Below, in pieces: positions 5,997-64,000 of a DNA stretch of 64,000 nt (its first letter is position 1; every line of letters starts with the position of its first letter). Both the position numbers and the translations under genes were made by a program. The stretch is from Pseudomonadota bacterium (lineage in GTDB: Bacteria > CALINM01): NCBI GenBank assembly GCA_026418415.1, contig JAOABK010000001.1, forward strand, positions 7,080 through 71,079, in the 5' to 3' direction. The notes under the pieces are model-generated. The model made no database searches, was not told the origin of the DNA, and saw only the letters and a program-made list of their open reading frames with translations.

Positions 5997-7029
5997 CCAT
6001 TAACTCTTTAAGTTTTTTGCTATTCATATTTAAGTTAAAAACATCATGCCATACATCTTCATTTTCCATACAAAGATAGACAAAAACATCACCTGAAAAG
6101 GAACGTATAATTTCATAAATTTTTTTGTAAATTTCAGTACGTTTTTTTCTAAAATATCTTTTCTTCCCATCAAGTCCTAAGATAAATTCATTATCAAATA
6201 TTTTTGTTTTGTATATTGATTTGGATATATCTTTTAAGCGAGGTATAAATCTAAGCGTTCCGAGGCTTATCCATTTTATAGATTTAGGATCTAAATTTTT
6301 AAAAATAAGCTCAACAATTTCTTTGTAATCCTGTTCCCAATCTTCGTATTCAATTATTGGATCAAAATGCAGGCTTATTGGATATCCTTTTGATATTACC
6401 ATTTTTGCTAAGTCTATTCGTTCTTCTATGGATGAGGTACCAATTTCTTCATATTTGTTAATTTTTTTGCTATTCATGGACCAAGAGAAAATTATATTTT
6501 TGTGCTTTGTTTCCAAAAAACAATCTAATATATTCTTCCCCTTTGTTTTCAATTCGAGATAAATATCGCTATTTTTATTGAAAAACTCTATTAGCTTTTC
6601 TGCATACACACTAGCCCCTAATTCATACATGCTGTCTGAAAATTCTCCTGTTCCAATTCTTTTTATTTTCTTTGTCTTGGCAATCTCATTTAATTCTTTT
6701 ATCATGTCCTCTGTGTTTAAGTAGATCTTAATGTGTCTATCTTTAAAATAGGCATTTAAAATGCAGTAAGTACAGTTATAAGGGCAGTTTTCAACAGGAG
6801 ATAATACATAATAACCACAACAGATATATTTAGGCGTGCCGGGACAGGGCATTAAAAACCTTCCTTTATTTAATGTAAATATTACTGCTCTGTCTATCTC
6901 TTGAGGGACTTCTTTTATATCATTGATTATATTAAATTTTAATCCCCTACTGTTTAAAAAGGGTTTAGCTTTATGTAATGCATCATATGTTACAAAATAT
7001 TTCATAGGATATCGAAAATTTTCTCCCAA
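5977..7029 (-). CDS. Radical SAM protein, spore-photoproduct-lyase (SPL/COG1533) family
   Basis: 350 aa with a CPYNCTYC (CX3CX2C) cluster motif and an SPL-like TIM barrel. Confidence 0.6.
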   Translation of the reverse strand: MGENFRYPMKYFVTYDALHKAKPFLNSRGLKFNIINDIKEVPQEIDRAVIFTLNKGRFLMPCPGTPKYICCGYYVLSPVENCPYNCTYCILNAYFKDRHIKIYLNTEDMIKELNEIAKTKKIKRIGTGEFSDSMYELGASVYAEKLIEFFNKNSDIYLELKTKGKNILDCFLETKHKNIIFSWSMNSKKINKYEEIGTSSIEERIDLAKMVISKGYPISLHFDPIIEYEDWEQDYKEIVELIFKNLDPKSIKWISLGTLRFIPRLKDISKSIYKTKIFDNEFILGLDGKKRYFRKKRTEIYKKIYEIIRSFSGDVFVYLCMENEDVWHDVFNLNMNSKKLKELMDAQLKK

Positions 7030-7883
7030 AGGTCTTTTTTTTCATCCACATTTTTTAAAAGTTTTCTAATCCTATCATTAAGTTCTACATAGTTCTTGAA
7101 GAAGATTTCTATTTTCAGGTTTTTTGATTCAAAAAATGGTGTTTCAACAAGGTTTATTTTGGATGGTAAATTTATTTTCTTTTTGTTTTGATCAAACAAT
7201 CTTTTGGTCTTAGTATATTGAGGCAAACTCAAAGCTCTTATCGTTTCTACTAACAAGTCTCTATTCTTGATTTTTTCTATATTAGAAAAGACTTCTTTAT
7301 CACTTATTTCATTTTTCTCTTGTAAAAATTGAAAAAACTCTCTTTGCTGACTCTGAGTAAGTTTAAGCTCATCTATGATTTTTAAAAACTTAAACAGCAG
7401 AGAAGGTTCTAAGTTATTTAGTTTTGATGCTAAATCTAAGGGAATTATACTTCTTGCAATCATATCTTGAGCTTCATCAGGCAATGATAAAATTTGCTCA
7501 TTTTTTATAAATTCTTCAACATCAAGATTTGGAACCAGTTCTTTAAGATCGAAATATAATATAAATTTTGATAATTGAATCTTTTCTATTGGGTTAAAAG
7601 AATTCTCTCTAAAAAAGATTTTTAGAATGTTAATAAAATCTATAGGGTTTTGGAACATTATACCAAATATTTTTTCCTTTGATTCTATAAATTTTTTAAG
7701 TACTCTAAAATTATTTAGAGGATAAAGTTTTTTTTCATATTCTAAAAACATGAATTTAGATTGGTCGTAATGTAAAGTTTCATAAAATACAAGGAACTTT
7801 TTTGATGGTATGATTCTTTTTTTAGGTATAGATTTGGGTTTCATAGAATTTACAAAGTTCTTTGAGTTTGTTGGATTCATCAA
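7002..7883 (-). CDS. Hypothetical protein
   Basis: 293-aa ORF with AT-rich codon usage consistent with its neighbours. It overlaps both flanking genes in an operon arrangement. I recognise no domain. Confidence 0.4.
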   Translation of the reverse strand: MMNPTNSKNFVNSMKPKSIPKKRIIPSKKFLVFYETLHYDQSKFMFLEYEKKLYPLNNFRVLKKFIESKEKIFGIMFQNPIDFINILKIFFRENSFNPIEKIQLSKFILYFDLKELVPNLDVEEFIKNEQILSLPDEAQDMIARSIIPLDLASKLNNLEPSLLFKFLKIIDELKLTQSQQREFFQFLQEKNEISDKEVFSNIEKIKNRDLLVETIRALSLPQYTKTKRLFDQNKKKINLPSKINLVETPFFESKNLKIEIFFKNYVELNDRIRKLLKNVDEKKDLWEKIFDIL

Positions 7884-10819: not shown

Positions 10820-11647
10820 TTATTTCAACACATTGTCAATTTTAGACTTGAAATGTTTTATCTTTGAAGAATTTTTATTAGTGAGGGCCAATTCATAAGC
10901 AGATTTATAATAGTATAAAGCTTTGTCTTGCTGACTTTCCATTAAATAAATATTTCCTAAAAATTCTAAGTCCCAATATATATAATCTAATAGGTTAAGA
11001 GATCTGTCGATATGTAATGCTTCATCAATAAGAGAAATCGCACCCTTGATGTTTTTGTCTTTTAAATCAATTAAAGATAATATTTTTAGTGTGAAGGATT
11101 TTTCTATTAAAAGATTTTTTTTGTTCGAGATTTTTAATGAATCCTTAGCAAAATTTTTGGCTAAGGTTAAATTGTTATTTTTTAAATGATTTAGAGATTT
11201 TATAATGTTTATGCCCGTTAAAACCTCTTCTGGATAATTTATATCTTCCTTTAATAGGGAATTTAGAAGATTAGTGTTTTGAGTTATGTAAGCAATGAGG
11301 ATTTCATAATATTTAATATAGGGGATCATATTAGGGGATTCCCTGATTGATATCTCCCTTGCAGTATCTAAATTTTTTTGTGCATTATCAAAACTACCGG
11401 TTCTAATTTCATAATTTGTTTTAAGCAGGTATGCTCTTATCTTTAAATCAGGAATATTTGTGGCTATTGATAGGTTTATTGATGTTTCTATAAGTTCTTT
11501 TAAATCAAAATCTTCACTGGCAAGACTCTTTTCAGTCTTTTCTATGACTCTTTCAGTTTCCTTTACAATATTAGCTTTTGGTAATTCTGTTTTTTGTGCA
11601 CAACCAAATGTTAAGTAAATAATGATGGAAAAAATAATTAGTCTCAT
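10820..11647 (-). CDS. TPR-like repeat lipoprotein
   Basis: Lipobox LTFGC and alpha-helical repeat composition. It overlaps mlaD by 4 nt. Confidence 0.5.
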   Translation of the reverse strand: MRLIIFSIIIYLTFGCAQKTELPKANIVKETERVIEKTEKSLASEDFDLKELIETSINLSIATNIPDLKIRAYLLKTNYEIRTGSFDNAQKNLDTAREISIRESPNMIPYIKYYEILIAYITQNTNLLNSLLKEDINYPEEVLTGINIIKSLNHLKNNNLTLAKNFAKDSLKISNKKNLLIEKSFTLKILSLIDLKDKNIKGAISLIDEALHIDRSLNLLDYIYWDLEFLGNIYLMESQQDKALYYYKSAYELALTNKNSSKIKHFKSKIDNVLK

Positions 11648-12648
11648 TTATCCTTACCCTCGTTTATTTGGGGTAATAAAAATGCCGGTGGTATAAGTGA
11701 AGGAGGTGTTTTAGGTGGGATGTTACCTTTTATAAACCAGCTTTTCTTAATTGATTCTGTAATATCATCGACATTATCAGCAATAATTTCAGCTTTATCA
11801 AGCATAGTTCCTATACGAGGCGATTGCCTTGAAATATCTTTAGCTATTTTGTTTATTTCTTCTAAAGATCTTTGTGTTTCATCAAGTATAAGTGGAATCT
11901 TATTATTAATTGTTTTTGTAAGGCTCTCAATTTCTTGTAGAGAATTGTCCACAGATTTTGTAAGTTTTGGTAATTCTTCTGATGTTTTGTTTATGTTTTT
12001 CAATGCCTCTTCAAGCTCTTTTAAAGATCTTTTAGCTTCTATAATTCTTTTTTGTAGTTCTTCATTAGTAGTTCTAAGCTCTTCTGTTAAGTGAGCGGTA
12101 TTTTTCAAAATTTTTGTTACATCACCCTGTGGATTTACAATATATTCAACGAAGTTTTTTACATCTAAAGCGACTGGCTTTAGTTCTTCTACCATTTCTT
12201 TTGCTATATCTTCTAATCCCTTTGTTTTCGCGAAAGTTATTTGGTCTCCATCTTTAAGCTCTGGCTTATCCATTGAACCAAAAGTAATTTCAATTATTGT
12301 TTCTCCTATATATCCCTCTTTTTTTATAGTCGCCGTTGAATCTTGCCTTATCCATTTTAGGTACCTTTTTTTAATTTCCATTTCAACACGAACGTGGGCA
12401 GTTTCATCTAATGTTATGTTTGATACACGACCTATTCTAAATCCAGCAAGTTTAACTGGCATATTGACTGAAAGTTCAAAAGCAGTATCGTGTATAAAAT
12501 ATAAGTGAACTGTTTTTGCAAAAATATCTTTAATCTTTCCAAGTTGATAAATAACAATAAGTAGAATTGTTAAAGATATAGTGATAAATACGAAAACTTT
12601 TTTACCAATATGTTTGAATCTTGGATCTATATCCTGTATGGTAGCCAT
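11644..12648 (-). CDS. MlaD-like MCE-domain protein with C-terminal coiled coil
   Basis: N-terminal TM helix followed by an MCE domain (VNMPVKLAGFRIGRVSNITLD) and a long coiled-coil tail. Confidence 0.8.
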   Translation of the reverse strand: MATIQDIDPRFKHIGKKVFVFITISLTILLIVIYQLGKIKDIFAKTVHLYFIHDTAFELSVNMPVKLAGFRIGRVSNITLDETAHVRVEMEIKKRYLKWIRQDSTATIKKEGYIGETIIEITFGSMDKPELKDGDQITFAKTKGLEDIAKEMVEELKPVALDVKNFVEYIVNPQGDVTKILKNTAHLTEELRTTNEELQKRIIEAKRSLKELEEALKNINKTSEELPKLTKSVDNSLQEIESLTKTINNKIPLILDETQRSLEEINKIAKDISRQSPRIGTMLDKAEIIADNVDDITESIKKSWFIKGNIPPKTPPSLIPPAFLLPQINEGKDK

Positions 12649-12657
12649 ATAATAACC

Positions 12658-13311
12658 TTATTTTAAACTTATAATTTTGTCAAATTTAAAATCCTCGGGA
12701 ATATGGGTTTTTTGCCTAAATGTCATAATTGTTATTCTATCTTTATTAGTATTATGAAAGTCAATGATTTGTTTAAGGTAAAAGTCTCTATATTCTCTAT
12801 TAGAATCATCTATAATATGTGAATAATACACCAAGTTTGCATCAGATAAAAAAGCCCTTGCTAAAAGACCACATCTTTTTTCATGATTTGTTAAATAGGC
12901 AGGAAGTTTATTGTAAGAAGATTCTATACCTAATTGCTTTAATATTTCATATGCTTTGTTGAACAAAATATTTTCAGATAAATTTGAATGATATAGTAGG
13001 GGTAGATAAATGTTTTCTATAAGTTTCAAATTACTTATTAAAGGTAAGTGTGGTGATACATGAATCTGTGTTTTTAGAATTTGAATAATTTCTGACTCAT
13101 GAAGGTCTTTGAATTCAATATTTTTTATGCTTGCATAACCTTCATATTCCCTATTGATGAAGAAAAGAAAGTAAAGTAATGCGAAGTCGTAAAGGTCTCT
13201 TGTAATAATTATTCCTATTTTCTCACCGCTATTTATTGTTAAATTTAGTATTGGCATTTTTTCGTTTTCGTGTATTATAGTGCAATCTCGAAATTCGTAA
13301 ATTATTCCCAT
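12658..13311 (-). CDS. MlaF-like ABC ATPase homolog with degenerate catalytic motifs
   Basis: It aligns to MlaF across its length, but every catalytic motif is altered: Walker A GPSGxGKT to ITRDLYDF; signature LSGG to LTNHEKR; Walker B DEP to SHIIDD; H-loop SHD to TFRQ. Confidence 0.6.
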   Translation of the reverse strand: MGIIYEFRDCTIIHENEKMPILNLTINSGEKIGIIITRDLYDFALLYFLFFINREYEGYASIKNIEFKDLHESEIIQILKTQIHVSPHLPLISNLKLIENIYLPLLYHSNLSENILFNKAYEILKQLGIESSYNKLPAYLTNHEKRCGLLARAFLSDANLVYYSHIIDDSNREYRDFYLKQIIDFHNTNKDRITIMTFRQKTHIPEDFKFDKIISLK

Positions 13312-14087
13312 AACACAACCAACATATCAAGGAAAATGTTTATTATAAAAACATAATAGAAACACTTAAGTACTGCTTTAGTTGTTAGCTGAGGGATTTC
13401 TGTAACACTTTTTTTAATCACAAGTCCATAAAAACAACAAATGGTAGATATGATTAACCCAAAAAACATTGCTTTCAATAGAAGTAGGACTAAATCAAAA
13501 GGTGAGATTCTATAAAAAAAGGTATTAAAAAAATCTTCTGTAGCGATATTTGTAAAAAGATAAAGGGAAATACCACCGCTTAGAATAGACATGAAAGTAG
13601 CGATAATTGTTAGACATAGTAGAGAAATTATAAAGCTTGCAATTCTACTAAATATTAGTGAGTAAATATAATTTATTCCTAAGCTTCGAAGTGTTAAAAA
13701 CTCATTATTTATTTTCATTAAATTTAATTCAGAGGTTATAGCGGAACCACTTCTTGTTATTGTTACTATTGCCATTAAAAGGGGAATGGTCTCACGAACT
13801 AATCCAATATTAATAATATTTGTTATAGTGGACAAATCGCCTATACCTGTTATAAAGGATGCAATTTGTGTAACTACCACCATACCCATGAATATGCCAA
13901 TATATATAGTTATGGGTATTGCTTGAATACCTGTAAAGTAAATCTGTTTTTTGCTTACATTTATAAATAGATTGATGCCTCTTGGAAAATTTGTGAAAAA
14001 ACCCTCTAAACAAATATATAGGAATGAAGCTAAATTATAAGTAGTTCCAAATATTCTTTCAAAAAGGAAGTCAAGTATTCTTTTCAT
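13302..14087 (-). CDS. MlaE-family ABC transporter permease
   Basis: 261 aa and polytopic. It carries the conserved MlaE/Ttg2B region (GIQAIPI..., TRSGSAITSELNLMKINNE). Confidence 0.8.
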   Translation of the reverse strand: MKRILDFLFERIFGTTYNLASFLYICLEGFFTNFPRGINLFINVSKKQIYFTGIQAIPITIYIGIFMGMVVVTQIASFITGIGDLSTITNIINIGLVRETIPLLMAIVTITRSGSAITSELNLMKINNEFLTLRSLGINYIYSLIFSRIASFIISLLCLTIIATFMSILSGGISLYLFTNIATEDFFNTFFYRISPFDLVLLLLKAMFFGLIISTICCFYGLVIKKSVTEIPQLTTKAVLKCFYYVFIINIFLDMLVVLWE

Positions 14088-14091
14088 TTCT

Positions 14092-15810
14092 CTATTTGCG
14101 TTTTATTCTAATTAATTTTTCAAAATCTTTTAAGTGCCTCGAATTTACTATGTCGTCACATGTTAACCATGCTCTTCTTGCCTGTCCTATACCATAGATC
14201 ATCATATTTAACTGTATTGAATTGTGAGAGTCGGTTCCTATACAGAACTTAACACCGTATTCTTTGGCAATTCTTGCGTTTATATCATTTAAATCAAGCC
14301 TGTCGAAATATGCATTAATTTCAAGGTATGTGTTAGTCTTTGATGCCCCTTTGCACATTTCTATAATATTCACATTATAGGGATCTCTTGAATTAATTAT
14401 TCTTCCAGTAGGATGAGCTATCATAGTTACATAAGGATTTTCCATGGCACTTAAAACTCTTTTTGTTATCTTTTTTTCATCATCTTTGAATCCAGAATGG
14501 ATTGAAGCAATAACAAAGTCTAATTTTTTCAAAATTTCATCAGAATAATCAAGAGAACCGTCGTGTTTTATATCTACTTCAGAACCTTTAAATATTTTGA
14601 AAGGCGCTAATTCTTTATTTAACTTATCTATTTCTTCCATTTGTTTATAAAGCCTTTCTATTTCAAGTCCCTTGGCAATTTTTAAACTCTGGGAATGATC
14701 TGTTATTACTATATATTCATAACCTTTTTTAATTGCTGACTCTGCCATAGCTCTTATAGTTTCACCACCGTCACTATATGTAGAATGAACATGGACATCT
14801 CCCTTAATATCTTTGTATCCAATAAGCTCTGGTAATTCATTTTTTTGAGCAAGTTCAATTTCGCCATTATCTTCTCTCATTTCTGGTGGTATCCAAACTA
14901 ACCCTAAGGTTCTGTAGACAATATCTTCATCTGGACAGGGGATTAATTTGTCACCTTCAAAAACTCCATATTCATTTATTTTTAAACCTTTATCTTTGGC
15001 AATACCCCTTAATTTAACATTATGATTTTTTGAGCCGGTAAAATACTGGAGGCAAGCACCAAAGGAAATATCATCGACTACCCTAAGATCTGCTTGTATT
15101 CCTGATGTCAGCAAGACGGAACTCTTTGTTTCCCCTTCTGAAAGTATTTCTTTAACCAGAGGAAGCTTCGTAAAACTTTTTATTATTCTTGCTGGATTTT
15201 CGCCTGAAGCGAGGATATCAATATCCCCTATGGTCTCTTTCATTCTTCTGAAACTACCAGCTACTTCTGCTCTTATAACCCCTTCGATTTTTTTAACGTC
15301 TTCGAGTAGCTTGGATATGTCTTCATAGATTAGTCCTATGGGATGTCTAAAGGTTTGTTCTTTAAATCTAAGTAATCCTTTAAGAATATTTTCCTCCTTT
15401 TTTGGGCCAAAGTTAGGTAAATTTCTTAGCATTTTATCTTCACAGGCTTTGATTAATTCGTCAAAATTTGTAATATGTAATGTTTTGTAAAGGGTTCTCA
15501 AAGTAACTGGACCTATGTATGGAACAGATAGGAGCTCTAATAAACCCTCTGGTATTTTAGAACGATATTCTTCATAAGCGCTTATTTTCCCCTTATCTAA
15601 ATATTCACCAACCTTTTGAATTATGCTTTCTCCTATGCCCTTTATCTCAGACAATTTGCCAGATTTATATAAATTTTCTATATCTTCTGGTAGTCCGTAG
15701 ATAATTTGTGATGCTCTTTTATATGCCCTTGCTCGAAAGGGGTTTTCACCGAGAAATTCCAGCATATCTCCCATTTCGTCAAAGATCTTTGCTATCTCTT
15801 TATTTTTCAT
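14092..15810 (-). CDS. DNA polymerase X family protein with C-terminal PHP domain
   Basis: Pol beta-like HhH and palm domains (GIGESI, GSFRRMKETIGDIDIL) plus a PHP domain (HVHSTYSDG ... HP). Confidence 0.85.
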   Translation of the reverse strand: MKNKEIAKIFDEMGDMLEFLGENPFRARAYKRASQIIYGLPEDIENLYKSGKLSEIKGIGESIIQKVGEYLDKGKISAYEEYRSKIPEGLLELLSVPYIGPVTLRTLYKTLHITNFDELIKACEDKMLRNLPNFGPKKEENILKGLLRFKEQTFRHPIGLIYEDISKLLEDVKKIEGVIRAEVAGSFRRMKETIGDIDILASGENPARIIKSFTKLPLVKEILSEGETKSSVLLTSGIQADLRVVDDISFGACLQYFTGSKNHNVKLRGIAKDKGLKINEYGVFEGDKLIPCPDEDIVYRTLGLVWIPPEMREDNGEIELAQKNELPELIGYKDIKGDVHVHSTYSDGGETIRAMAESAIKKGYEYIVITDHSQSLKIAKGLEIERLYKQMEEIDKLNKELAPFKIFKGSEVDIKHDGSLDYSDEILKKLDFVIASIHSGFKDDEKKITKRVLSAMENPYVTMIAHPTGRIINSRDPYNVNIIEMCKGASKTNTYLEINAYFDRLDLNDINARIAKEYGVKFCIGTDSHNSIQLNMMIYGIGQARRAWLTCDDIVNSRHLKDFEKLIRIKRK

Positions 15811-25766: not shown

Positions 25767-26410
25767 TAGATTTACATACCCATACAATTTATTCTGATGG
25801 AGAATTGATCCCCTTTGAGTTAGTAAGAAGGGCAGAAAATATCGGTTATAAATATATTGCATTGACAGATCATATGGATTTTTCTTCTTTTGAGTTTGTT
25901 ATTCCCAAGCTTGTGAAAGCTGCAAAGAAATTAAATGAGGTCAGTAAAACTACTGTAATTCCTGGATGTGAAATAACCCATATTCCGCCTTCACTTATGA
26001 AAGAAGCAGTAAGAGAAGCAAGGAAACTGGGGGCAAAAATAGTGATCGGTCATGGAGAAAGTCCAGTCGAACCAGTTCTTGTAGGAACAAACCGATCTGC
26101 AATAGATGCTAAAGTTGATATATTAGCACATCCAGGCTTAATAACCGAAGAGGATGTAAAAAGAGCTATAAAGAATAATGTAATTTTAGAAATTACCGCA
26201 AGAGGTGGACATAATATTACAAATGGTCATGTTGCTAAATTAGCAAAAAAATATGGTGCTTTAGTTACGGTTAACACAGATGCCCATAGTCCAAGAGATT
26301 TAATAACCTTCGATTTTGCTAAAATAGTTGCAATCGGAGCAGGATTTGATGAAAATGATTTTTATAAAGCCTATAACTTGGTTGAAAAGTGGTTATCAAC
26401 AAAGTTCTAA
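25763..26410 (+). CDS. PHP-domain metal-dependent phosphoesterase
   Basis: PHP metal-ligand motifs DLHTHTIYSDG, TDH and NTDAHS. ATGA overlap with the upstream gene. Confidence 0.7.
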   Translation: MIDLHTHTIYSDGELIPFELVRRAENIGYKYIALTDHMDFSSFEFVIPKLVKAAKKLNEVSKTTVIPGCEITHIPPSLMKEAVREARKLGAKIVIGHGESPVEPVLVGTNRSAIDAKVDILAHPGLITEEDVKRAIKNNVILEITARGGHNITNGHVAKLAKKYGALVTVNTDAHSPRDLITFDFAKIVAIGAGFDENDFYKAYNLVEKWLSTKF

Positions 26411-27033
26411 CTACAGATAAATTACCAGAATTTATTCAATATTTCTTTACTTCCAAGTACATAGCCTATTGGTTGGGAATAAAAATTACTCAGATAGATG
26501 AGATTAGAGAATATGCAATTGAGAACATACTTGATATTGAAAATAAATTTTTAAGAATAATTTTTGCTGATTACCAAGTTAAGGAGTTAGAAAATAATCT
26601 TGATGATAGATTAAAGGTGGAAGATATTGCTGATTTTGTAAGATTTATAATTGATTATTATGATGATATTGAGGATTTTTTAGCCGAGAGAGAAGAGAGT
26701 TTTTATGTAGAATTTGTATTTCAAGTCCCTTTTATTTGGAATAGCAGGTTTTCAAAAGAGGAAAGGGAAACTTTTTTTTCAGATCCCAAAGCAAAGTATT
26801 ATGCAACAATTAGAAATAATTATATTGGCAGGATGATTTTGATAAAGAGCAGTTTGGATATTATAGATACCAATAATGATGAGTGTTTAGTGCAGTTTTA
26901 CTTTGAAGATCAAGGAGATTTAGATCTCCTCCTTTTATTTCCTAAGTTTCTAAAAAAATACTGGGTTACTATAATTGATAGAATAGTAAAATCAAGCGGA
27001 TATTCAATACCCTTCGAGATAAGCGATTGCTGA
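26389..27033 (+). CDS. Hypothetical protein
   Basis: 214-aa ORF with no recognisable motifs. The true start may be internal. Confidence 0.35.
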   Translation: MVINKVLTTDKLPEFIQYFFTSKYIAYWLGIKITQIDEIREYAIENILDIENKFLRIIFADYQVKELENNLDDRLKVEDIADFVRFIIDYYDDIEDFLAEREESFYVEFVFQVPFIWNSRFSKEERETFFSDPKAKYYATIRNNYIGRMILIKSSLDIIDTNNDECLVQFYFEDQGDLDLLLLFPKFLKKYWVTIIDRIVKSSGYSIPFEISDC

Positions 27034-34170: not shown

Positions 34171-34542
34171 TCAGGCATAACTTATATTTTCTAAAATCAT
34201 AAATAGAGCATTTATTTGTAATGGATCAGATTTATTTATTACAGATAACACTTTTCCCATTTTAAAGTGTTTGTGTAATTCTTCTGATGTTTTTGAGCTA
34301 ACTACAATTATTTTATAAAAAGGTATACCTGCTTTTTCAGCATGATCAATAACTTTTTTACCATCAATAGTTGACATCTCCCAGTCTACTATTAAAAGGT
34401 CGAAAACTTTATCAAATTCTTTAAAGGCTTCTAAGGGGTCGTTAAAGGTTTTTATATTAAAGCAGGGATAGTGTTTTTCTATCTCATTCTTTATAAGATT
34501 AAGAAAAGAAACGTTATCGTCTATTATAATTATAGTCTTCAT
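34171..34542 (-). CDS. Single-domain CheY-like response regulator
   Basis: 123 aa with receiver aspartates (IIIIDD, LLIVDWEM). Confidence 0.7.
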   Translation of the reverse strand: MKTIIIIDDNVSFLNLIKNEIEKHYPCFNIKTFNDPLEAFKEFDKVFDLLIVDWEMSTIDGKKVIDHAEKAGIPFYKIIVVSSKTSEELHKHFKMGKVLSVINKSDPLQINALFMILENISYA

Positions 34543-35300
34543 TTTATTAATTTTTTCTTCATAAGTTTTATTGAAAGAATAAAGAAAATGATACCATGAA
34601 AAAAAGGATAGATCCCCTCTAAAATTATCTTTAAGTTTAAATTGTATTCTAACGCTCTTAAAGAAATCATGGAATAGGTGAGAGGAAAGATTATTTTACT
34701 AATATAGACTATGAAATCAGGAAAGTTAGTGATAGGAAAAAATGTGCCAGAGAAAAAAATCATAGGGGTATAGTATAGGAAGATAGGGTAGTTAAAGGAT
34801 TCGATGGTTGATACAATTGAAGTGAACAACATACCAAGAGAAGAAAAAGTAAAAGAAAGAATTGAAATAATTAATAAATAAAAAAATAAGTTCTTTAAGG
34901 GGACCAATCCCAGAAAAATTAGAAAAATTAATACCATGAAGCCACTTATTATGCCTCTTGTTGCTCCCCACATAATTTCACCCATTACGACCTCTTCTAT
35001 ACTAACAGGTGTTGCTATAATTGCGTCAAAGGTTTTTTGAAATATCATTTTCACGAAACTTGAATAGGTGGTATAAAAAAAGGATGAACTTAAGGTTGCC
35101 ATTGCGACAATTGCTGGTATTATAAACTTTTTGTAAGGCATCCCATTTATATCTCTTACAAAATTTCCTAATCCAAATCCAAAGGTTATTAGATAAAAAA
35201 TAGGTTCTAGTAGGGGTAAAAAAAAGTTTACCCAGAAAAGCTTTTTAAAAACGTCTCTGTTTCTTTTCCATACAGGTATCCAGCCAGTTAAAATTATCAC
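34539..35300 (-). CDS. ABC-2 type transporter permease
   Basis: 253 aa with six predicted TM helices. ATGA overlap with the ATPase gene. Confidence 0.7.
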   Translation of the reverse strand: MIILTGWIPVWKRNRDVFKKLFWVNFFLPLLEPIFYLITFGFGLGNFVRDINGMPYKKFIIPAIVAMATLSSSFFYTTYSSFVKMIFQKTFDAIIATPVSIEEVVMGEIMWGATRGIISGFMVLIFLIFLGLVPLKNLFFYLLIISILSFTFSSLGMLFTSIVSTIESFNYPIFLYYTPMIFFSGTFFPITNFPDFIVYISKIIFPLTYSMISLRALEYNLNLKIILEGIYPFFHGIIFFILSIKLMKKKLIK

Positions 35301-36205
35301 TCCTTTAACTCCTTTCCTGTAAGATAGATGAAAAGATCTTCTAAGTTTGTTGGTCTAACGGTAAATTTTATGTTTTCACAAATATCTGTAAGCATTTCTA
35401 AGGCTTCTTTTTTATTATCTGTATGAATATAAATCCTATCTTTGAAAAAGATCTTTTTCCCCTTTATTTCATTTAATTTAACATCTTCGCAGTTATATAT
35501 TTCTATGGTTTCTGTTCCTATATGTTTGATTATAAGCTCCTTCGGATTTCCCCATGTGATAATTTTACCTGCATCCATTATGTAAATCCTATCACAAAGC
35601 TTTTCTGCTTCTTCCATGTAATGGGTTGTTAATATAATAGTTTTACCATTTTTTTTTAAATCTTCAATCATCTCCCATATTTTCCTTCGAGCTTGAGGAT
35701 CTAAGCCAGTAGTTGGCTCATCGAGTATTATTAATTCTGGATCGTTTATTAAACTTCTTGCAATGATAAGTTTTCTTTTCATGCCACCAGATAAATCGGT
35801 TACCTTTTCGTCTCTTTTGTTTTGTAAACCAACAAAGTTAAGTAAATTTTGAATCCTTTTTTCTGCCTCATCTCTCTTTATCCCAAAATATCTCGAGAAA
35901 ACAAGTAGATTTTCGTAAACAGTAAAGTCAGGATCGAAGTTGTTGTCTTGAGGAACTAATCCTATTAATGCTTTGATTTTCTTCTGATCTTTTTCAGTGT
36001 CTAATCCAAAGACTTTTAACTTTCCAGAAGTTTTGAAAGATGTACAGGTAATGAGTTTTATAAGGGTTGTTTTACCTGCTCCGTTGGGTCCTAAAAAACC
36101 TACAATTTCACCTTCCTTAACAAAGAAATTTATGTTATCGAGAGCCTTAAAACTATCATAGTTTTTAGATATATTAAAGCCTTCAATAATTATTTGGGTT
36201 GTCAT
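35297..36205 (-). CDS. ABC transporter ATP-binding protein (ABC-2/drug-exporter type)
   Basis: Intact Walker A GPNGAGKTT, signature LSGGMKRK and Walker B IILDEPTTGLD. Confidence 0.9.
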   Translation of the reverse strand: MTTQIIIEGFNISKNYDSFKALDNINFFVKEGEIVGFLGPNGAGKTTLIKLITCTSFKTSGKLKVFGLDTEKDQKKIKALIGLVPQDNNFDPDFTVYENLLVFSRYFGIKRDEAEKRIQNLLNFVGLQNKRDEKVTDLSGGMKRKLIIARSLINDPELIILDEPTTGLDPQARRKIWEMIEDLKKNGKTIILTTHYMEEAEKLCDRIYIMDAGKIITWGNPKELIIKHIGTETIEIYNCEDVKLNEIKGKKIFFKDRIYIHTDNKKEALEMLTDICENIKFTVRPTNLEDLFIYLTGKELKE

Positions 36206-40334: not shown

Positions 40335-42008
40335 TTACTCCCAGTTTTCCCAAGTTTTTTTTGCTCGATTGTATAGATAAAGACAAGACAAGACACTTAT
40401 AAATAATAAAAATGCGTAACTAATTATAAAGTTTAAGTAACTAATAGTTTGGGCAAAAAGTTTATTTTTCAGATAACTATAAACTGGACCTGCTTGGATA
40501 ACAATGCTGAGTCCAATATATAGCATGCTAAAGAGCATGTAGGTTATTCCACCGTAACTAAAGGAAATCTCTGTTACATTAGAAAATTTAAAATGGGGGT
40601 AAATAATACTAAATGATAAACCAAAGAATGTTAAGACAGCAGTCATTGTTAGCACATTAATAACCGTGAACAAATACATAAAACTATCAACATTTAAAAG
40701 TTTATTTGAAAATAGGGAAAGTAAAATTCCAAATATCAAAAGTGGTATAAAATATAATAAGAATTTAGATAAAAAGATTTGATGCATTTCTATGGGGAAG
40801 CTTTTTACTATCCACATTACCTTGCCTTCTTGTGAAAAGCTTGGAAATACAAAACGATTAATAAGTGAGGCAAGTATGAATTCAAGAATTCCGATATTGA
40901 AAAAGGCTACCATATTCATAGTTATTGCATGTTTTATAGGTAAGCTTTTTACACTGAAAAGATATACAAAAACAAGACCTACCAGTAGTAAGAGTTGACT
41001 CCATTGTCCTGTATCTCTTGCTATTTCTTTTAAATCTTTAAGAAAAAACTGTCTTATTCCATTAGAAAAGGGAATTATTTTAGCAATTATATCTAATTTA
41101 CTGCCTTTTATTTCTTTTTTTATAAAATCAGATTTTGCCCTTGAAAAAGAATAGGTATAAATTTTATTAGAGATGATAATAAAAATAAGAAAACATAATA
41201 TTGTAAATAAAAATAACATTAAAAGATAAATTAAATATTGATTTGCATTTTTATCAAAGGTTAATGCTGAAAAGCCCTTTGTAATCCAAGTGGAAGGAAG
41301 AAAAGGATATTCTGGTGTTTCAAGTCCCTTCAAGAATTTCATAAATTCTTGATCTGGTATTGGTCGGAATAGTCTTTCAGGTCTTATTAATCTGATTACT
41401 ATGAATATAAATGCAATAAAAATTGCAGAAATACTCCAAAGTATTTGGTGGGCTCTCTTTGCAGGAAAGTAATTAACTATGAAAAGGGTAATTAAACAAC
41501 CGAGTGCTGAGAGAGATAAAAATAAAAAGAGATATAGCAAGAATATTAAAAAAAGGTTGTACTTTGAAAAACTGAAACTTTCAAAAAGAGCATAGTAAAA
41601 TGGAATCATGGCGAAAATCACCATCCATGAGCTCGTTATAGTAGTTTGTAAATATCTTGATATTATTAATCTCTTATTGTTTAAAGGATATGAAAGTAGT
41701 AATTCTAAATCTTCGGAAACATAAAAGTAGTATATTGAATTTGTTAAATTACTAAAAAAAAGCATAGAGAGAAAAGTCAGATTCATAATATTAACAAGCT
41801 GGATTGTTAGATGTTTTGATAAAAATTCTACTTCTATTTTAAGGTAATTAAAAATTTTCAAAAAAAATCTATACTCTCCAAAGAAAAAAAGTATAGCCAA
41901 AAAAAGTAAGATGAAGATCTTTAGTCGTTTGTCAGAACTTTTGTTAAGGAAATTATTTTTAAGCATTAATAATCTATATTTGTAATTCATAAGTATTATT
42001 TTATTCAT
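40335..42008 (-). CDS. Polytopic integral membrane protein of unknown function (possible ABC-exporter-like permease)
   Basis: 557 aa with more than ten hydrophobic helices. No catalytic motif recognised. Confidence 0.4.
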   Translation of the reverse strand: MNKIILMNYKYRLLMLKNNFLNKSSDKRLKIFILLFLAILFFFGEYRFFLKIFNYLKIEVEFLSKHLTIQLVNIMNLTFLSMLFFSNLTNSIYYFYVSEDLELLLSYPLNNKRLIISRYLQTTITSSWMVIFAMIPFYYALFESFSFSKYNLFLIFLLYLFLFLSLSALGCLITLFIVNYFPAKRAHQILWSISAIFIAFIFIVIRLIRPERLFRPIPDQEFMKFLKGLETPEYPFLPSTWITKGFSALTFDKNANQYLIYLLMLFLFTILCFLIFIIISNKIYTYSFSRAKSDFIKKEIKGSKLDIIAKIIPFSNGIRQFFLKDLKEIARDTGQWSQLLLLVGLVFVYLFSVKSLPIKHAITMNMVAFFNIGILEFILASLINRFVFPSFSQEGKVMWIVKSFPIEMHQIFLSKFLLYFIPLLIFGILLSLFSNKLLNVDSFMYLFTVINVLTMTAVLTFFGLSFSIIYPHFKFSNVTEISFSYGGITYMLFSMLYIGLSIVIQAGPVYSYLKNKLFAQTISYLNFIISYAFLLFISVLSCLYLYNRAKKTWENWE

Positions 42009-43236: not shown

Positions 43237-44367
43237 ATGAAAACAGCTTTTATTTATACTGATGAGCTTGCAAAATTTAAATATAGTGATACCCATCCAC
43301 TAAAACCTTTTAGATTAAAACTTACTTATGAGCTTATAAAAGCCTATGGCCTCGATGACATTGATAATTCAATATTTAAAAAACCAAAAATAGTTAATGA
43401 AGAGATTTTATTGAAGGTACATACTCACGACTATCTTGATGTATTGAAGACCTTAAATTCTGGCATTGATGTTCCTTACGCATCACATTTTGGTTTAGGT
43501 TATGGAGATAATCCGATATTTAATGGTATGTATGATTGGTCTATGTTGGTTACAAGTGCAACTGTTGAGGCTGCAAATATAATATTAAGTAATGAAGCCA
43601 ACATCGCTTTTAACATTTCTGGAGGTCTTCACCATGCATTACCTAATAAAGCATCGGGTTTTTGTTATATCAATGATATTGCTGTAGCAATAAAATATTT
43701 AATTGATCAGGGGAAAAGGGTCGTATATCTTGATATTGATGCCCATCATGGAGATGGTGTTCAGCATATTTTTTATGATACAAATCGAGTTTTGAAGATT
43801 TCAATACACGAGACTGGTTATTACCTTTTTCCAGGCACAGGGTTTGTAGAAGAGATGGGAGAAAAAGAGGGATATGGATACTCAGTAAATGTTCCATTAC
43901 CACCTTATAGTGATGATGAGGTTTTTCATTACGCATTTGATAAAGTAGTTCCAGAGTGTATTGATAGATTTAAACCAGATATTATTGTTACACAATTAGG
44001 AGTAGATACGCTTTATGACGACCCACTTGCCCATCTTAACTATTCGATTTATGGGTTTTCATCTGCAGTAGAAAAGATAAAAAATTTGGGGATACCCTGG
44101 ATTGCACTTGGTGGTGGTGGATATGACATTGCAAGTGTAGCAAAGGCATGGACTGTAGCATGGGCTGTCATGAACAATAAGGACTTGAACAAGAACATAC
44201 CTGAAGATTTCATGAAAACTTATGGGAAATATGGGTTTGAGAATGATGATCTTTTTGGTCCAAGATATGAATTAGTAGAAGAACAAAAAAAGAAAGTATT
44301 GGAGATTTTAGATAGAGAGATAACTTTTATCCATAAAAAGATTATGCCCCTGATTAAGGATAGATAA
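43237..44367 (+). CDS. Histone deacetylase-family protein (AcuC / acetylpolyamine amidohydrolase-like)
   Basis: HDAC motifs GGLHHA, GFCYINDIA, DIDAHHGDG and the GGGGY loop. Confidence 0.8.
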   Translation: MKTAFIYTDELAKFKYSDTHPLKPFRLKLTYELIKAYGLDDIDNSIFKKPKIVNEEILLKVHTHDYLDVLKTLNSGIDVPYASHFGLGYGDNPIFNGMYDWSMLVTSATVEAANIILSNEANIAFNISGGLHHALPNKASGFCYINDIAVAIKYLIDQGKRVVYLDIDAHHGDGVQHIFYDTNRVLKISIHETGYYLFPGTGFVEEMGEKEGYGYSVNVPLPPYSDDEVFHYAFDKVVPECIDRFKPDIIVTQLGVDTLYDDPLAHLNYSIYGFSSAVEKIKNLGIPWIALGGGGYDIASVAKAWTVAWAVMNNKDLNKNIPEDFMKTYGKYGFENDDLFGPRYELVEEQKKKVLEILDREITFIHKKIMPLIKDR

Positions 44368-45407
44368 TGAGTAAAAATCTCATGCCCTTCGAAGGAAACT
44401 TAATGACGACGGGAATGGGGATACTGCCTCACAAAGATTTGGACAGAGCTCTTAAAATATCAATGTCTGTTGATATTCCCTTTTGGCCACAGTTACCAAA
44501 AATGAGTTTTTTTGAAGATATGTATGTTCAAGCCTCTGAAAATTTTCCTGGAATTATACTTGAGCCTGAAAACCTTAATATATATTTTGATACCGCAAAG
44601 TTCTACTCTCAATTGGAGAATACTCTATTAAATTTTGAAAATCCTGATTTTTTTAAAATGTCTCCTCAATATTCTGCAACCTATCATGCCTTTCTGGGAT
44701 TTGACCTTTCAAAATATGCTTCTATAAGAGGACAGTTGGAAGGCCCAGTAAGTTTTGGTCTAAAAGTATTAGATGAAAATAAGAAACCAATAATATTCAA
44801 TGAAGAAGTTAGATCAATTCTGTTTGATTTCATGGCGAGAAAAGCTAATGTACAACTGCAAGAGCTAAAAGATAAAAATCCAAGAGCTTTCTTATTTATA
44901 GATGAGCCTGGTTTACAATATATATTTAGTAGTGTTTCAGGTTATACAAATGATATGGCAAAGAGAGATTTTGAAATTTTCTTTAATCAGATAGAGCATC
45001 CAAGAGGTATACATCTTTGTGGAAATCCCGATTGGGATTTTCTGCTCAATCTTGATATAGATATTCTTTCTTTTAATGCTTATAACTGTGGAGAAATATT
45101 TGTAAAATATAAGGCGAGCATAAAAAGATTTCTTAAAAGAGGGGGCATAATAGGTTGGGGATTAGTTCCAGCAAATTATGAAGAGTTTCAAAAGGAAAAC
45201 AAAGAGCATCTTATTCATCATATTGAAAATTTGTGGGGGGAACTGGTTAAAGAAGGTTTTGATTTGAAAGAGGTGTTGACTAAAAGTATCCTAATGCCAG
45301 CGACATGTGCACTTTTAAATCCCGATGAATTTAAAACTGTAGAAGAAGCTTATAATTGGCTTAATAATCTATCCCATAAATTAAGAGAGAAATATAAAAT
45401 TGTGTGA
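44367..45407 (+). CDS. MetE-C-terminal/UroD-like TIM-barrel protein (putative Zn-dependent methyltransferase)
   Basis: MTTGMGILP resembles the MetE TTTIGSFP motif, and IHLCGN plus ATCA suggest His/Cys Zn ligands. 1-nt overlap with the upstream HDAC-like gene. Confidence 0.4.
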   Translation: MSKNLMPFEGNLMTTGMGILPHKDLDRALKISMSVDIPFWPQLPKMSFFEDMYVQASENFPGIILEPENLNIYFDTAKFYSQLENTLLNFENPDFFKMSPQYSATYHAFLGFDLSKYASIRGQLEGPVSFGLKVLDENKKPIIFNEEVRSILFDFMARKANVQLQELKDKNPRAFLFIDEPGLQYIFSSVSGYTNDMAKRDFEIFFNQIEHPRGIHLCGNPDWDFLLNLDIDILSFNAYNCGEIFVKYKASIKRFLKRGGIIGWGLVPANYEEFQKENKEHLIHHIENLWGELVKEGFDLKEVLTKSILMPATCALLNPDEFKTVEEAYNWLNNLSHKLREKYKIV

Positions 45408-45557: not shown

Positions 45558-46559
45558 ATGAAAATACAAAACTTTTTTTTCTTAATAATCTTTTCAGTAA
45601 TTTTGAGTTGCAGTTATTTGACGGAATCAAAGCCATTATTGAAACAATCTGAGATTGAGAAATTAATCGCTGGAAGAATTGATGCAGAATATATTGGGAC
45701 AGATAATTGTTTAAAAAACTGCCATGAAAAGGGAAATGAACACAAAAAGTTGGCAGATTATTTTAAGAAAAGTGTTCATGCAGAACAAATTAATATAGAT
45801 ACACACCTTCCTCTTGTTAATTGTGAAACATGCCATGGACCTGGTAGCATTGCTGTTGAAAACATAAAGGAAGTCAATGGAAAAAAACAGTGCGACTTTG
45901 ATAGTCTAATTAATATAAAGAAGTTGCCAGCTGAGGCAAAAAATCTAATATGTCTTAAATGTCATACAAAAGCCTCTTCACCTAATCTTGCTATGTGGAG
46001 AGGTTCTAAACATGATTTAGCTGGGGTTTCATGTAGTGATTGTCACAAACTACACAAATCCCCTTTGCAAAAAGTTGAGCATAACCAGCAGATTGAGCTA
46101 TGTTTGGGATGTCATAAGAAAATAAAGGTAGAGATTTCAAGTTTATCAAAGCATCCATTTCATGAAAGAAAAATTATCTGTACAGATTGTCACAACCCCC
46201 ATGGAAGCTTTACAAATAATCTTTTAAAAAAGGAGTCTCTTAGAGAAACTTGTGCTAATTGCCATACTGAAAAAGCTGGTCCCTATATTTTTGAGCATGC
46301 TGATTTGATGGATGATTGTAGTAACTGTCACGTTCCACATGGTTCGGTTAATGATAATCTTCTAAAAGTCAAAGAACCTATATTATGTTTAAGATGTCAT
46401 GAAGGTCATCATTCTTTTAGAAGTACTGCATTAAGCCCTGTCAATAAATTAAAATACTATAATAGATGTACTGACTGTCATCTATCAATTCACGGGACAG
46501 ACACTCCTTCTGGTTCAGCCACAACGTTGCCAAAGAATCAAGGGAGGATGTTAAGGTAG
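45558..46559 (+). CDS. Decaheme c-type cytochrome, MtrA/DmsE/PioA-like (periplasmic/lipoprotein)
   Basis: 333 aa with signal peptide and possible lipobox ILSC. Exactly 10 CxxCH motifs: CLKNCH, CETCH, CLKCH, CSDCH, CLGCH, CTDCH, CANCH, CSNCH, CLRCH, CTDCH. Confidence 0.85.
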   Translation: MKIQNFFFLIIFSVILSCSYLTESKPLLKQSEIEKLIAGRIDAEYIGTDNCLKNCHEKGNEHKKLADYFKKSVHAEQINIDTHLPLVNCETCHGPGSIAVENIKEVNGKKQCDFDSLINIKKLPAEAKNLICLKCHTKASSPNLAMWRGSKHDLAGVSCSDCHKLHKSPLQKVEHNQQIELCLGCHKKIKVEISSLSKHPFHERKIICTDCHNPHGSFTNNLLKKESLRETCANCHTEKAGPYIFEHADLMDDCSNCHVPHGSVNDNLLKVKEPILCLRCHEGHHSFRSTALSPVNKLKYYNRCTDCHLSIHGTDTPSGSATTLPKNQGRMLR

Positions 46560-55324: not shown

Positions 55325-55645
55325 TTATATAAAAATCTAATTTTTATAATTCAGATATTGAATCGCTTTATTTTCTAATTTTTTATTTCAATAATTTTGC
55401 TTTTCAGGGTATAAATTTTAAAAATTTTATTAAAACGTTAAAATTATAAAAATTTAATTGACAAATTTTAATTATAGAAGTAGGATTGCGATTAGAAATG
55501 TTTAATATAATAAAAAAGATATCTCAACCCTTTTTAGTATCTGTTAAATTTTTACCGTTTTTTAACAATAATATTGATCAAGCTGCTTTTTTTAGTTTTC
55601 AAATTTTACAAAAAATTAAATTCAACGTATTTAGTGAGGAAAAAT

Positions 55646-60904: not shown

Positions 60905-60917
60905 AGGAGACAGACTA

Positions 60918-63900: not shown

Positions 63901-64000
63901 TTTCTGAGCTGGGTTATCGAATTGAGAGAAAAACAGGGCCATGCTCAAGCAATGATAATTTTCAAGTTATTACACAAACACCTCCTAATGTAACATCCTA
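60918..64000 (+). CDS. Large secreted beta-propeller (SBBP-repeat) / fibronectin-III surface protein, 3'-partial (runs off window)
   Basis: Not in the ORF track because no stop is reached. ATG 60918 follows AAGGAGA, with signal peptide MIKRLNIAVLLILFLTSSLFASG. More than 20 repeats of ...GN(V/I)Y(V/L)(T/A)GY... D(I/F)(L/Y)LIKY...G...W and at least two FN3-like modules (LSWSDNS..YYYRVRAY). Confidence 0.7.
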   Translation, partial: MIKRLNIAVLLILFLTSSLFASGGEQICKKLDINNVAYPTASVRDFEGNIIVAGYKSISMSDESFYIAKISSDCSGILWSYEENPSNQSDRLVSVTTDFEGNVIAVGYILYGSNFDIKILKLNKETGSIVWTERYNGLANLDDFPVAVKVDSVGNVYVAGYSRNTSGNDDFLLIKYSKNGGLPLWVQTFNSAYNKDDRATSLDIKSDSVIIAGYSDNGSDLDMLLIKYALTGELLWSRRYIGNANNEDRAVGVKIDDNGDVLLTGFTTNSNGNKDIYIGKYFKDTGVPIWEKIYNGGYDDEPYSIAIGEGNNVYLTGYTWTIEHHTQLTTMKISSLNGEIIWQRNFSLSEDITSVGIDITVENEEDVYVTGYLVRGTNYNILTLKYHKILGNQVWSVEYDGDAGKNDRPIGIFIGLDGKVIVAGWSETGINEPHFLILKYEPGSINAPTNLTAEVLSNSQVRLSWSDNSNNEDSFKIERKTGDLGNWQEIASLSANTINYIDNSVSANTKYYYRVRAYSTTFGYSHYSNETKVITTVITFEQPTWVYTYNGSGNNDDYANAIAIGPDSNPVIAGFSFSSISGFDYVTMKLNRSNGALIWSRSYDDPENDTDIATCIDVDNNNDVIVSGFASLFNPNVGYNTNDIMTIKYSSNGALLWSDAFSGPGNNDDRSVAISVSKDASGNPFILGYGKNASGNDDIYLIKYNASGTRQWSKIYNGGGDDYPSSFVIDKNGDVIIAGYVTRGGNFDWYVSKYKNSDGTILWTYFYDEVGLEDKALSITADKNGDIFVTGFISKSGSIKDIQLIKLSGGSGGLLWQKKFNRNSGDNEAIKVLIDPVDGDIVIAGSITSIEGDKDIYTAKFKNSDGSLIWERTVSRLSINDILADAVVDISGNVCLGGNSGQWEGQDIVAIKFDHEGNLLGASLYNGVANRQDGVEKIAVNRFGETFLVGYTTTANGDTDFLIFKCGLDPIQVPTPLSVTASYNSLVINWVDNSFSELGYRIERKTGPCSSNDNFQVITQTPPNVTS

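Follow-up and report, generated by a model that had tools for sequence, protein, structure and literature searches.

An ABC-fold protein without ATP-site motifs occupies the MlaF position of a conserved Mla-like gene cassette

The Mla-like cassette

The window analysed here is a 64,000-nucleotide (64-kb) stretch of contig JAOABK010000001.1 from the Pseudomonadota bacterium assembly GCA_026418415.1. Its minus strand carries a four-gene Mla-like lipid-transport cassette in which the gene in the MlaF position encodes a protein with the fold of an ABC nucleotide-binding domain (NBD) and without the motifs that handle ATP. In window coordinates, the cassette runs from an MlaE-type permease (14087-13302, minus strand, 261 amino acids (aa); PF02405, 171.5 bits, E=2.5e-50), through the ABC-fold protein, hereafter the pseudo-NBD (13311-12658, minus strand, 217 aa; assigned by an AlphaFold2 (AF2) model, Foldseek and profile alignment), and a long MlaD/MCE protein (12648-11644, minus strand, 334 aa; PF02470, 57.5 bits, E=1.7e-15), to a TPR lipoprotein (11647-10820, minus strand, 275 aa; TPR_12/TPR_2 matches) whose signal peptide ends in LTFG-C16. 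The MlaE and pseudo-NBD open reading frames (ORFs) overlap by 10 nucleotides (nt; ATGGGAATAA), the pseudo-NBD ORF is followed after 9 nt by MlaD, and the MlaD and TPR genes share a 4-nt overlap (ATGA); these junctions indicate that the four genes form a single operon. The ORFs and Pfam matches bear out the gene order of the original prediction, which had been made from the sequence alone and read MlaE, MlaF homolog, MlaD and TPR lipoprotein; its span of 11644-14087 takes in the first three genes and leaves the TPR gene (10820-11647) just outside.

A tRNA follows the TPR gene. On the other side, the gene for a PHP-domain DNA polymerase of the PolX family (14092-15810, minus strand) ends 4 nt upstream of the MlaE start codon, an adjacency that is kept in the close relatives L001-L003. 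PolX and the Mla cassette may be co-transcribed, without an obvious functional link between them.

Fold and motif loss of the pseudo-NBD

The AF2 model of the 217-aa protein is confident (predicted local distance difference test, pLDDT, 93; predicted template-modelling score, pTM, 0.89), and Foldseek aligned it with the NBDs of MacB, MlaF (including chains of the MlaFEDB complex), LolD and FtsE at template-modelling scores of 0.80-0.85 and E~1e-15. A profile built from the pseudo-NBD and its orthologues covers solved NBDs from end to end, with E-values of ~1e-13 for MJ0796/LolD and ~5e-7 for MlaF. General family models scored it poorly: PF00005 gave 12.8 bits (E=0.19), below its gathering cut-off of 25 and over residues 54-161 only, between the two Walker motifs; the MlaF equivalog NF008809/PRK11831 gave 17.4 bits, below its cut-off of 441; and NCBIfam returned weak DarD, LolD, YbbA and FtsE matches. 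The end-to-end likeness to ABC ATPases that had been proposed thus holds for the solved-NBD profile and the predicted fold, and fails for PF00005, to which the protein aligns in part.

The motifs were taken straight from the translation, and their positions come from a profile alignment with MJ0796 and LolD. At the Walker A position, the pseudo-NBD has ITRDLYDF (residues 36-43; 13183..13206, minus strand), aligned to GPSGSGKS of MJ0796, and lacks the glycine-rich loop, the lysine and the serine or threonine. The glutamine of the Q-loop, which lies with the start of the helical subdomain in the stretch HLPLISNLKLIENIYLPLLYH (residues 88-108; 12988..13050, minus strand), is replaced by proline. 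LTNHEKR (residues 140-146; 12874..12894, minus strand) stands in place of the LSGGQ/E signature. The Walker B equivalent is LVYYSH (residues 160-165; 12817..12834, minus strand), in which the aspartate has become S164 and the catalytic glutamate H165, and the H-loop histidine is F198 (12718..12720, minus strand). Every loss listed in the original prediction (Walker A, Q-loop, signature, Walker B glutamate and H-loop) is therefore present, and the Walker B aspartate is lost as well. The alignment to PF00005, proposed at the time as a check, scores below threshold; the fold itself is established by AF2 and Foldseek. The protein is thus confirmed to have an ABC fold without any ATP-handling motif.

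The gene had also been described as intact and free of frameshifts, and this stands: it is the longest ORF possible in its frame, and therefore hides no N-terminal P-loop, and its orthologues are 216-217 aa long. Each ATP site of an ABC protein is a composite: one NBD supplies Walker A, Walker B, Q-loop and H-loop, and its partner supplies the signature. Neither half of this composite site is left in the pseudo-NBD, and a normal ATP power stroke is therefore unavailable; because the motifs are lost, both ATP binding and hydrolysis by the protein are predicted to be absent.

Conservation and selection

Conservation of the degenerate motifs in orthologues had been set as a further check, and the same substitutions are present in all 12 database orthologues (54-70% identity, 216-217 aa). 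The order PolX, MlaE, pseudo-NBD, MlaD and TPR is also found at the loci of these orthologues; a 37%-identical relative from another metagenome-assembled genome lies once more in an MlaE, pseudo-NBD, MlaD and TPR cassette, and the four-gene arrangement is retained down to ~20% identity. Among the closest pairs, the nonsynonymous divergence (dN) is 0.21-0.25 and the synonymous divergence (dS) at least 1.1. So low a dN against a saturated dS shows purifying selection on the gene; the dN/dS of ~0.14-0.2 for the closer pairs is a rough value, because dS exceeds 1 in every pair. Across orthologous cassettes, the pseudo-NBD diverges faster than MlaE and MlaD and slower than the TPR protein, as in the comparison with the L003 cassette (MlaE 83%, pseudo-NBD 69%, MlaD 87% and TPR 55% identity).

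These results bear on the possibility that the protein is an artefact, either a sequencing or assembly error or a decaying pseudogene. The motif loss itself, and nothing else, speaks for this, and it is extremely improbable. The 216-217-aa frame and identical substitutions recur in 12 independent assemblies, which therefore exclude a sequencing error, and divergent forms occur across ~76 cassettes; the shared losses, a dN far below dS and the confident fold prediction together rule out error and pseudogene alike. The suggestion that the protein is a retained structural or regulatory pseudo-ATPase is instead supported by its fold, by losses that extend to all orthologues, by purifying selection and by conserved gene order.

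The wider pseudo-NBD family

When 1.84 billion representative proteins were searched with a profile, 5 representatives reached E<=1e-30 and a long tail came after them. Of 161 proteins collected, 87 have none of the three motifs Walker A, signature and Walker B, 22 retain one or two of them and 52 are canonical, the canonical proteins matched by the profile being partners of FtsX/MacB-type permeases (e.g. P0181, P0188). Metagenome contigs were also scanned with the hallmark peptide L[IV]SNL[KS]x[WIL]EN, which yielded 221 encoding stretches, and 80 loci were examined, with ORFs classified by jackhmmer seeded with the four proteins of the window. Related loci were viewed up to 10 kb on each side, and the present genome over the 64-kb window.

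This gave 76 non-redundant cassettes in which an intact pseudo-NBD lies directly upstream of an MlaD of ~305-335 aa; one of the loci (L007) bears the label Syntrophales. Where the available sequence reaches far enough, MlaD is followed by the TPR gene in 51 of 53 loci on the downstream side, and the pseudo-NBD is directly preceded by MlaE in 36 of 53 on the upstream side. Three-gene loci with the pseudo-NBD, MlaD and TPR genes are L010, L019-L021, L025, L044-L047, L052, L055, L056, L068, L069, L080 and L086. In L047 and L055, an orphan MlaE lies on the opposite strand at a distance of 3.7 kb, flanked by an FBPase gene and a metallo-beta-lactamase-fold gene and with no NBD beside it; MlaE is probably encoded elsewhere in those genomes, and not absent from them. 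Clustering of the neighbouring ORFs across all loci gave housekeeping synteny only, with no further conserved partner such as a STAS protein, a real ATPase or an MlaC-like protein.

The family is large and apparently undescribed. NCBI labels the pseudo-NBD of the window a hypothetical protein, JGI calls some close orthologues ABC ATPase subunits, and a precomputed PF00005 (ABC_tran) match is attached to many of the distant members. Current labels, whether hypothetical or ABC_tran, thus conceal the family. The recurrence of a dead subunit across ~76 related cassettes from uncultured bacteria probably marks a branch that works without its own ATP hydrolysis, and this family membership makes the finding weightier than a single oddity would be.

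Motif census and family consensus

In an alignment-based census of 153 non-redundant family members, the signature SGG is retained by none. A complete Walker A is kept by 3/153 and its lysine by 31/153, the Q-loop glutamine by 11/153 and the H-loop histidine by 2/153. The Walker B aspartate is present in 55/153 and the catalytic glutamate in 10/153, with both together in a single member (1/153). The lost motifs have a consensus of their own: an acidic T-[SAE]-[RG]-[ED]-[DE]-E at the P-loop site, L-[STP]-x-[YFH]-E at the signature site and hhhY-[DS] at the Walker B site. Because the replacements follow this consensus, they point to a putative new constraint and not to decay.

The best-conserved stretch of the family, GGLISNLKxWENIxLPLxYH, corresponds to HLPLISNLKLIENIYLPLLYH of the window protein and aligns to GALFTDMSVYENVAFPIRAH of MlaF. 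Conserved columns in the family alignment A2 are L91, S93, N94, L95, E99, N100, L103, P104 and Y107. The Q-loop/helical-subdomain region of ABC NBDs, in which this stretch lies, forms the groove that receives the coupling helix of the permease.

A subclade comprising L031, L033-L035 and L050/L051 (e.g. L033:1886-2560) has a complete P-loop, GPLGSGKT or GPLGYGKT, together with LPFYT at the signature site, YDRL and no catalytic glutamate at the Walker B site, and no H-loop histidine. It could represent a binding-only intermediate stage. Since the L031/L033/L050 subclade keeps the P-loop alone, the pattern suggests an order of loss in which hydrolysis went first, with nucleotide binding following in most lineages.

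The same features bear on a sensor role, in which a remodelled pocket would bind nucleotide non-canonically, or another ligand, and signal to MlaE or MlaD without hydrolysis. The residues of the former ATP site are non-random, with a family-specific acidic and aromatic consensus, and the P-loop subclade, with GPLGSGKT but without signature, catalytic glutamate or histidine, has the pattern expected of binding without hydrolysis. However, the P-loop is replaced by acidic residues, which should repel phosphates, in the window clade and most of the family, and the most conserved surface is the Q-loop/helical-subdomain stretch and not the pocket. On this balance a sensor role appears distinctly improbable.

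Origin of the pseudo-NBD

The pseudo-NBD probably descends from MlaF, though the sequence comparisons are divided. The profile of the window clade ranks LolD/MJ0796/MacB-type NBDs (E~1e-13) above MlaF (E~5e-7), whereas the broad family profile places the MlaFs of A. baumannii and P. aeruginosa first among solved chains (124 and 122 bits). This lead is narrow, the next match scoring 120 bits and others 115-120, with MetN and LolD close, and pairwise BLAST is split, MlaF being the top match for 63/153 members. Details that resemble MlaF are the conserved tyrosine before Walker B, which corresponds to that of the MlaF-type (M/L)YDEPF (MYDEPF in the alignment), and P-x-x-x-H after the Q-loop helix. 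The pseudo-NBD ends at residue 217 and lacks the ~50-residue C-terminal extension by which MlaF touches both its partner MlaF and MlaB; in the family alignments, MlaF chains of 269-273 aa are covered up to residue ~211-213. A solved structure is not available for any member of the family, and ordinary MlaFs are the top PDB matches. One correction applies to the designation MlaF homolog in the original prediction: the gene does lie beside mlaE and mlaD, and in sequence the window clade is nearer to LolD, MJ0796 and MacB.

The permease, the needle protein and the lipoprotein

The MlaE of the window matches solved MlaE chains at E~3e-15, and its segment SELNLMKINNEFLTLRSLGIN, which aligns with the conserved central AEIGSMKQSEQLASMEMIGVD of solved MlaE, is retained. 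We take SELNLMKINNEFLTLRSLGIN to be the NBD-docking (coupling-helix) element. Docking of the pseudo-NBD to MlaE is plausible, as the Q-loop/helical-subdomain stretch is the best conserved of the family and the central segment of MlaE is kept.

MlaD of the window matches solved MlaD at E~3e-10, and its structure was predicted by AF2 with database homologues. The model has a transmembrane helix (residues 9-39), an MCE beta-domain (46-140), ~160 helical residues (145-304) and a proline-rich tail; relatives carry weak or precomputed matches to Mce4_CUP1 and to PF28544 ('Helical_needle'). The cytoplasmic N-terminus, before the transmembrane helix, carries a DPRF motif (residues 8-11; 12616..12627, minus strand) that is conserved through the cassettes and has the extended form (E/Q)-D-P-R-F-(K/R)-x-L-x-(K/R)-K. 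D-[PA]-[RK]-aromatic is present in 50 of 62 non-redundant cassette MlaDs and near-variants (D-x-R-F, or DPSF in L001/L002) in the remainder except L007, with D8 and F11 invariant in alignments A3/A4. Residue 19 of the window MlaD pairs with residue 11 of the solved E. coli MlaD chain, so the N-terminus of the E. coli chain is shorter. The DPRF motif may act as a peptide onto which the pseudo-NBD or MlaE docks.

The motif also enters into a different assignment of partners, in which the pseudo-NBD works mainly with MlaD and the TPR protein, for instance by holding the DPRF N-termini of an MlaD hexamer, and MlaE is optional. The pseudo-NBD, MlaD and TPR genes form the invariant core of the cassettes (TPR in 51/53, against adjacent MlaE in 36/53), and a DPRF-type motif is found in nearly all cassette MlaDs, those of three-gene cassettes included. 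Set against this, the best-conserved stretch of the pseudo-NBD falls in the permease-docking groove region of ABC NBDs, and an orphan MlaE lies near the three-gene cassettes L047 and L055. A partnership in which MlaE is optional is, on this evidence, improbable.

The C-terminus of MlaD (residues 302-334; 11644-11745, minus strand) has a conserved K-x-S-W-F-I-(K/R) segment with an invariant W304, followed by the proline-rich tail. Some long MlaDs have been proposed to contribute one beta-strand each to a six-stranded mini-barrel (PMC10665443), and by analogy this segment might be such a single strand. A weak match to the window MlaD (E=0.0012), over the MCE and helical regions, is chain I of PDB 13hr, a 312-aa 'Mce/MlaD domain-containing protein' present in 8 chains; no MlaE-like or pseudo-NBD-like chain of 13hr was found among the other PDB search matches.

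Homologues of the TPR protein have a lipobox-type cysteine in 39/52 cases and near-lipobox forms in the rest. The TPR gene of the window gave TPR-family matches only, with no homology to PqiC. Its signal peptide and cysteine mark it as a lipoprotein, and it may thus be an analogue, not a homologue, of the PqiC/MpcA cap.

Search for a second ATPase

A second, intact mlaF-like gene had been proposed as something to look for in the genome, and this was done over the window and the related loci: none is present in the 64-kb window, next to the 76 cassettes or next to the L047 orphan MlaE. No MlaB/STAS, MlaC or MlaA was seen in the window, and no STAS gene was found in the cassette or among its conserved neighbours. 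The sole intact ABC ATPase of the window is encoded at 34539-36205 (minus strand; 302 aa, with GPNGAGKT, LSGGM and DEP), paired with an ABC-2-type permease and then a response-regulator-like gene; it was rejected as an MlaF because it is of ABC-2 type with its own permease and unrelated to the Mla cassette. The 557-aa product of 40335-42008 (minus strand) matches PF16949 'ABC_tran_2' (301 bits) and ABC2_membrane_3 and has no Walker A; it was rejected as an ATPase and looks like a membrane component despite the Pfam name. Intact ABC proteins near related cassettes were likewise rejected as MlaF, being SufC (L007), a branched-chain amino-acid-type ATPase (L010) and partners of FtsX/MacB permeases (P0181, P0188).

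The main rival explanation is that an intact MlaF- or MceG-like ATPase at another locus powers MlaE, the pseudo-NBD acting as a regulator or decoy: by occupying NBD docking sites in competition with that ATPase, or by sharing them, it would switch off or tune transport. Mycobacterial Mce systems share MceG, which is encoded away from the mce operons (PMC9947336), the 17 of 53 cassettes that stand apart from MlaE indicate that components can be encoded separately, and the visible genome amounts to 64 kb, with one unrelated intact NBD. Against it, in a mixed dimer of intact and pseudo-NBD one site would have no signature and the other no P-loop, so that by the established ABC mechanism neither would be competent; the 10-nt overlap of the MlaE and pseudo-NBD genes suggests translational coupling and stoichiometric co-assembly; and no intact MlaF lies near the 76 cassettes or the L047 orphan MlaE. 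We consider this explanation unlikely, though it deserves to be taken seriously.

Other loci in the window

Further along the window lie genes for a 333-aa multihaem cytochrome c (45558-46559, plus strand), a 1776-aa multihaem cytochrome with c7, MtrC/MtrF-like features and Geobacter CxxxxCH motifs (55574-60904, plus strand) and a beta-propeller/fn3 protein whose gene continues past the window edge (60804-64000, plus strand; at least 1065 aa). Together, these look like an extracellular electron-transfer locus. Four other sizeable ORFs had no Pfam match at the thresholds used: 7002-7883 (minus strand, 293 aa), 26389-27033 (plus strand, 214 aa), 44367-45407 (plus strand, 346 aa) and 46566-48443 (plus strand, 625 aa).

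Proposed role of the pseudo-NBD

We propose, with a probability of roughly one half, that the pseudo-NBD is a catalytically dead descendant of an ABC NBD that is kept for a structural role: without hydrolysing ATP, it would cap MlaE within an MCE bridge of the needle type. In the putative arrangement, two MlaE permeases would sit in the inner membrane, each capped on its cytoplasmic side by one pseudo-NBD, which would stabilise the MlaE dimer, possibly together with the DPRF N-terminus of MlaD. MlaD would form a hexameric MCE ring, its long C-terminal helices making up a periplasmic needle that the TPR lipoprotein would receive at the outer membrane. Lipid movement through the MCE needle would be passive, or energised from outside the operon. 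The fold, the motif loss, the purifying selection, the conserved cassette and the lack of an adjoining intact NBD are results of the analysis; the docking, the stoichiometry, the needle with its outer-membrane contact and the independence from ATP are inferred.

Several observations weigh against this proposal. Binding of the pseudo-NBD to MlaE is putative, and the helical part of MlaD has low confidence in the monomer model (pLDDT ~45-65). MlaE is not adjacent in 17 of the 53 loci, the pseudo-NBD being tied more tightly to MlaD and the TPR protein than to MlaE. The subclade that retains a P-loop indicates that nucleotide binding may be relevant for some family members. Mce1 and Mce4 were not stabilised by MceG carrying Walker B mutations, so that stabilisation in that case is not independent of catalysis (PMC9947336). 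Lastly, an intact MlaF-type ATPase may be encoded elsewhere in the genome, by analogy with MceG (PMC9947336).

If the structural-cap proposal is extended to the whole family, the cassettes would represent an undescribed and widespread class of MlaE-based MCE bridges that permanently lack ATP hydrolysis, in which a former MlaF has become an obligatory structural pseudo-enzyme locking the MlaE dimer, perhaps with the DPRF N-termini, while lipid passes through the MlaD needle to the TPR lipoprotein without an ABC power stroke. We advance this extension tentatively, and hold it to be possible rather than probable.

The energetics and direction of phospholipid traffic by Mla and MCE systems are still under debate (review PMC10212509; bioRxiv preprint 10.1101/2021.05.25.445566), and a conserved dead NBD in the MlaF position offers a natural test case. 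If the MlaE-MCE core does run without its own ATPase, passive or otherwise energised transport becomes credible for this architecture, and the cassette would be a natural, evolutionarily fixed 'ATPase-dead' Mla that would show the capabilities of an MlaE/MCE core deprived of ATP and the direction in which it works. Should the system rely on an orphan ATPase instead, the pseudo-NBD competing for the permease would constitute a new regulatory layer.

Comparison with known systems

In the literature that can be searched in full text, with subscription-only papers outside this scope, no degenerate MlaF or ABC pseudo-ATPase has been described in an MCE operon, nor any ABC pseudo-enzyme that has lost both halves of both ATP sites. 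We therefore regard the cassette as an apparently undescribed variant of MCE/Mla systems, marked by its fixed pseudo-NBD and its TPR lipoprotein. A phylogenomic survey of Mla systems mentions the 'uncertainty of MlaF annotations' and draws on MlaDEF as well as MlaDE clusters (PMC10665443).

The cassette shares with the MlaFEDB complexes of E. coli, A. baumannii and P. aeruginosa (PDB 6xbd, 7d06, 7ch8) an MlaE, an MlaD with a single MCE domain and an NBD-fold subunit in the MlaF position. It differs from them in lacking the ATP-site motifs and the extension at the MlaF C-terminus (217 versus ~270 aa), in its long MlaD (334 aa, ~160 helical residues) followed by a TPR lipoprotein gene, and in having no MlaB/STAS, MlaC or MlaA in the window.

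The four-gene order is that of the 'Mla-Pqi chimeric' MpcEFDA of Brucella abortus, namely permease, NBD, needle-type MCE protein and lipoprotein, a system proposed to span both membranes, inner and outer, with neither MlaC nor MlaA, the MpcD needle being capped by the outer-membrane lipoprotein MpcA (PMC12436622). In contrast to the present cassette, MpcF is described as an MlaF-homologous ABC ATPase, MpcE has an N-terminal STAS domain and MpcA is PqiC-like and not a TPR protein (PMC12436622). Minimal trans-envelope MlaEFD systems, reported from Veillonella parvula and most diderm phyla, have a long helix-extended MlaD as the common form, and this is proposed to bridge the envelope (PMC10665443). 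The lack of MlaA and MlaC and the long alpha-helical MlaD are features in common with the cassette, but the MlaD of the minimal systems ends in a beta-barrel, and neither a TPR lipoprotein nor a dead F subunit is described for them (PMC10665443).

PqiABC and LetAB are MCE tunnel or needle systems with an inner-membrane partner that has no ATPase domain, and the PqiB needle meets an outer-membrane lipoprotein (PMC12436622). They provide a precedent that MCE tunnels can operate with inner-membrane partners free of ATPase domains. However, PqiA and LetA are not MlaE homologues, an NBD-fold subunit is lacking, and each PqiB or LetB chain has several MCE domains.

The mycobacterial Mce1 and Mce4 systems (PMC9947336; PDB 8fed) resemble the cassette in their MlaE-like YrbE permeases and long helical MCE needles and in an NBD, MceG, that is required for the stability of both complexes and encoded off-operon. 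They differ in that MceG is active, with its Walker B needed for transport as well as stabilisation, the MCE ring is heterohexameric and the operons contain no pseudo-NBD. CFTR and heterodimeric exporters of the PatAB type (PMC5626490, PMC9541285) likewise have some non-canonical NBD motifs and a degenerate site that is structural or regulatory. These transporters, however, keep one competent composite site, and their degenerate site binds ATP, whereas in the pseudo-NBD cassette both halves of both sites are gone.

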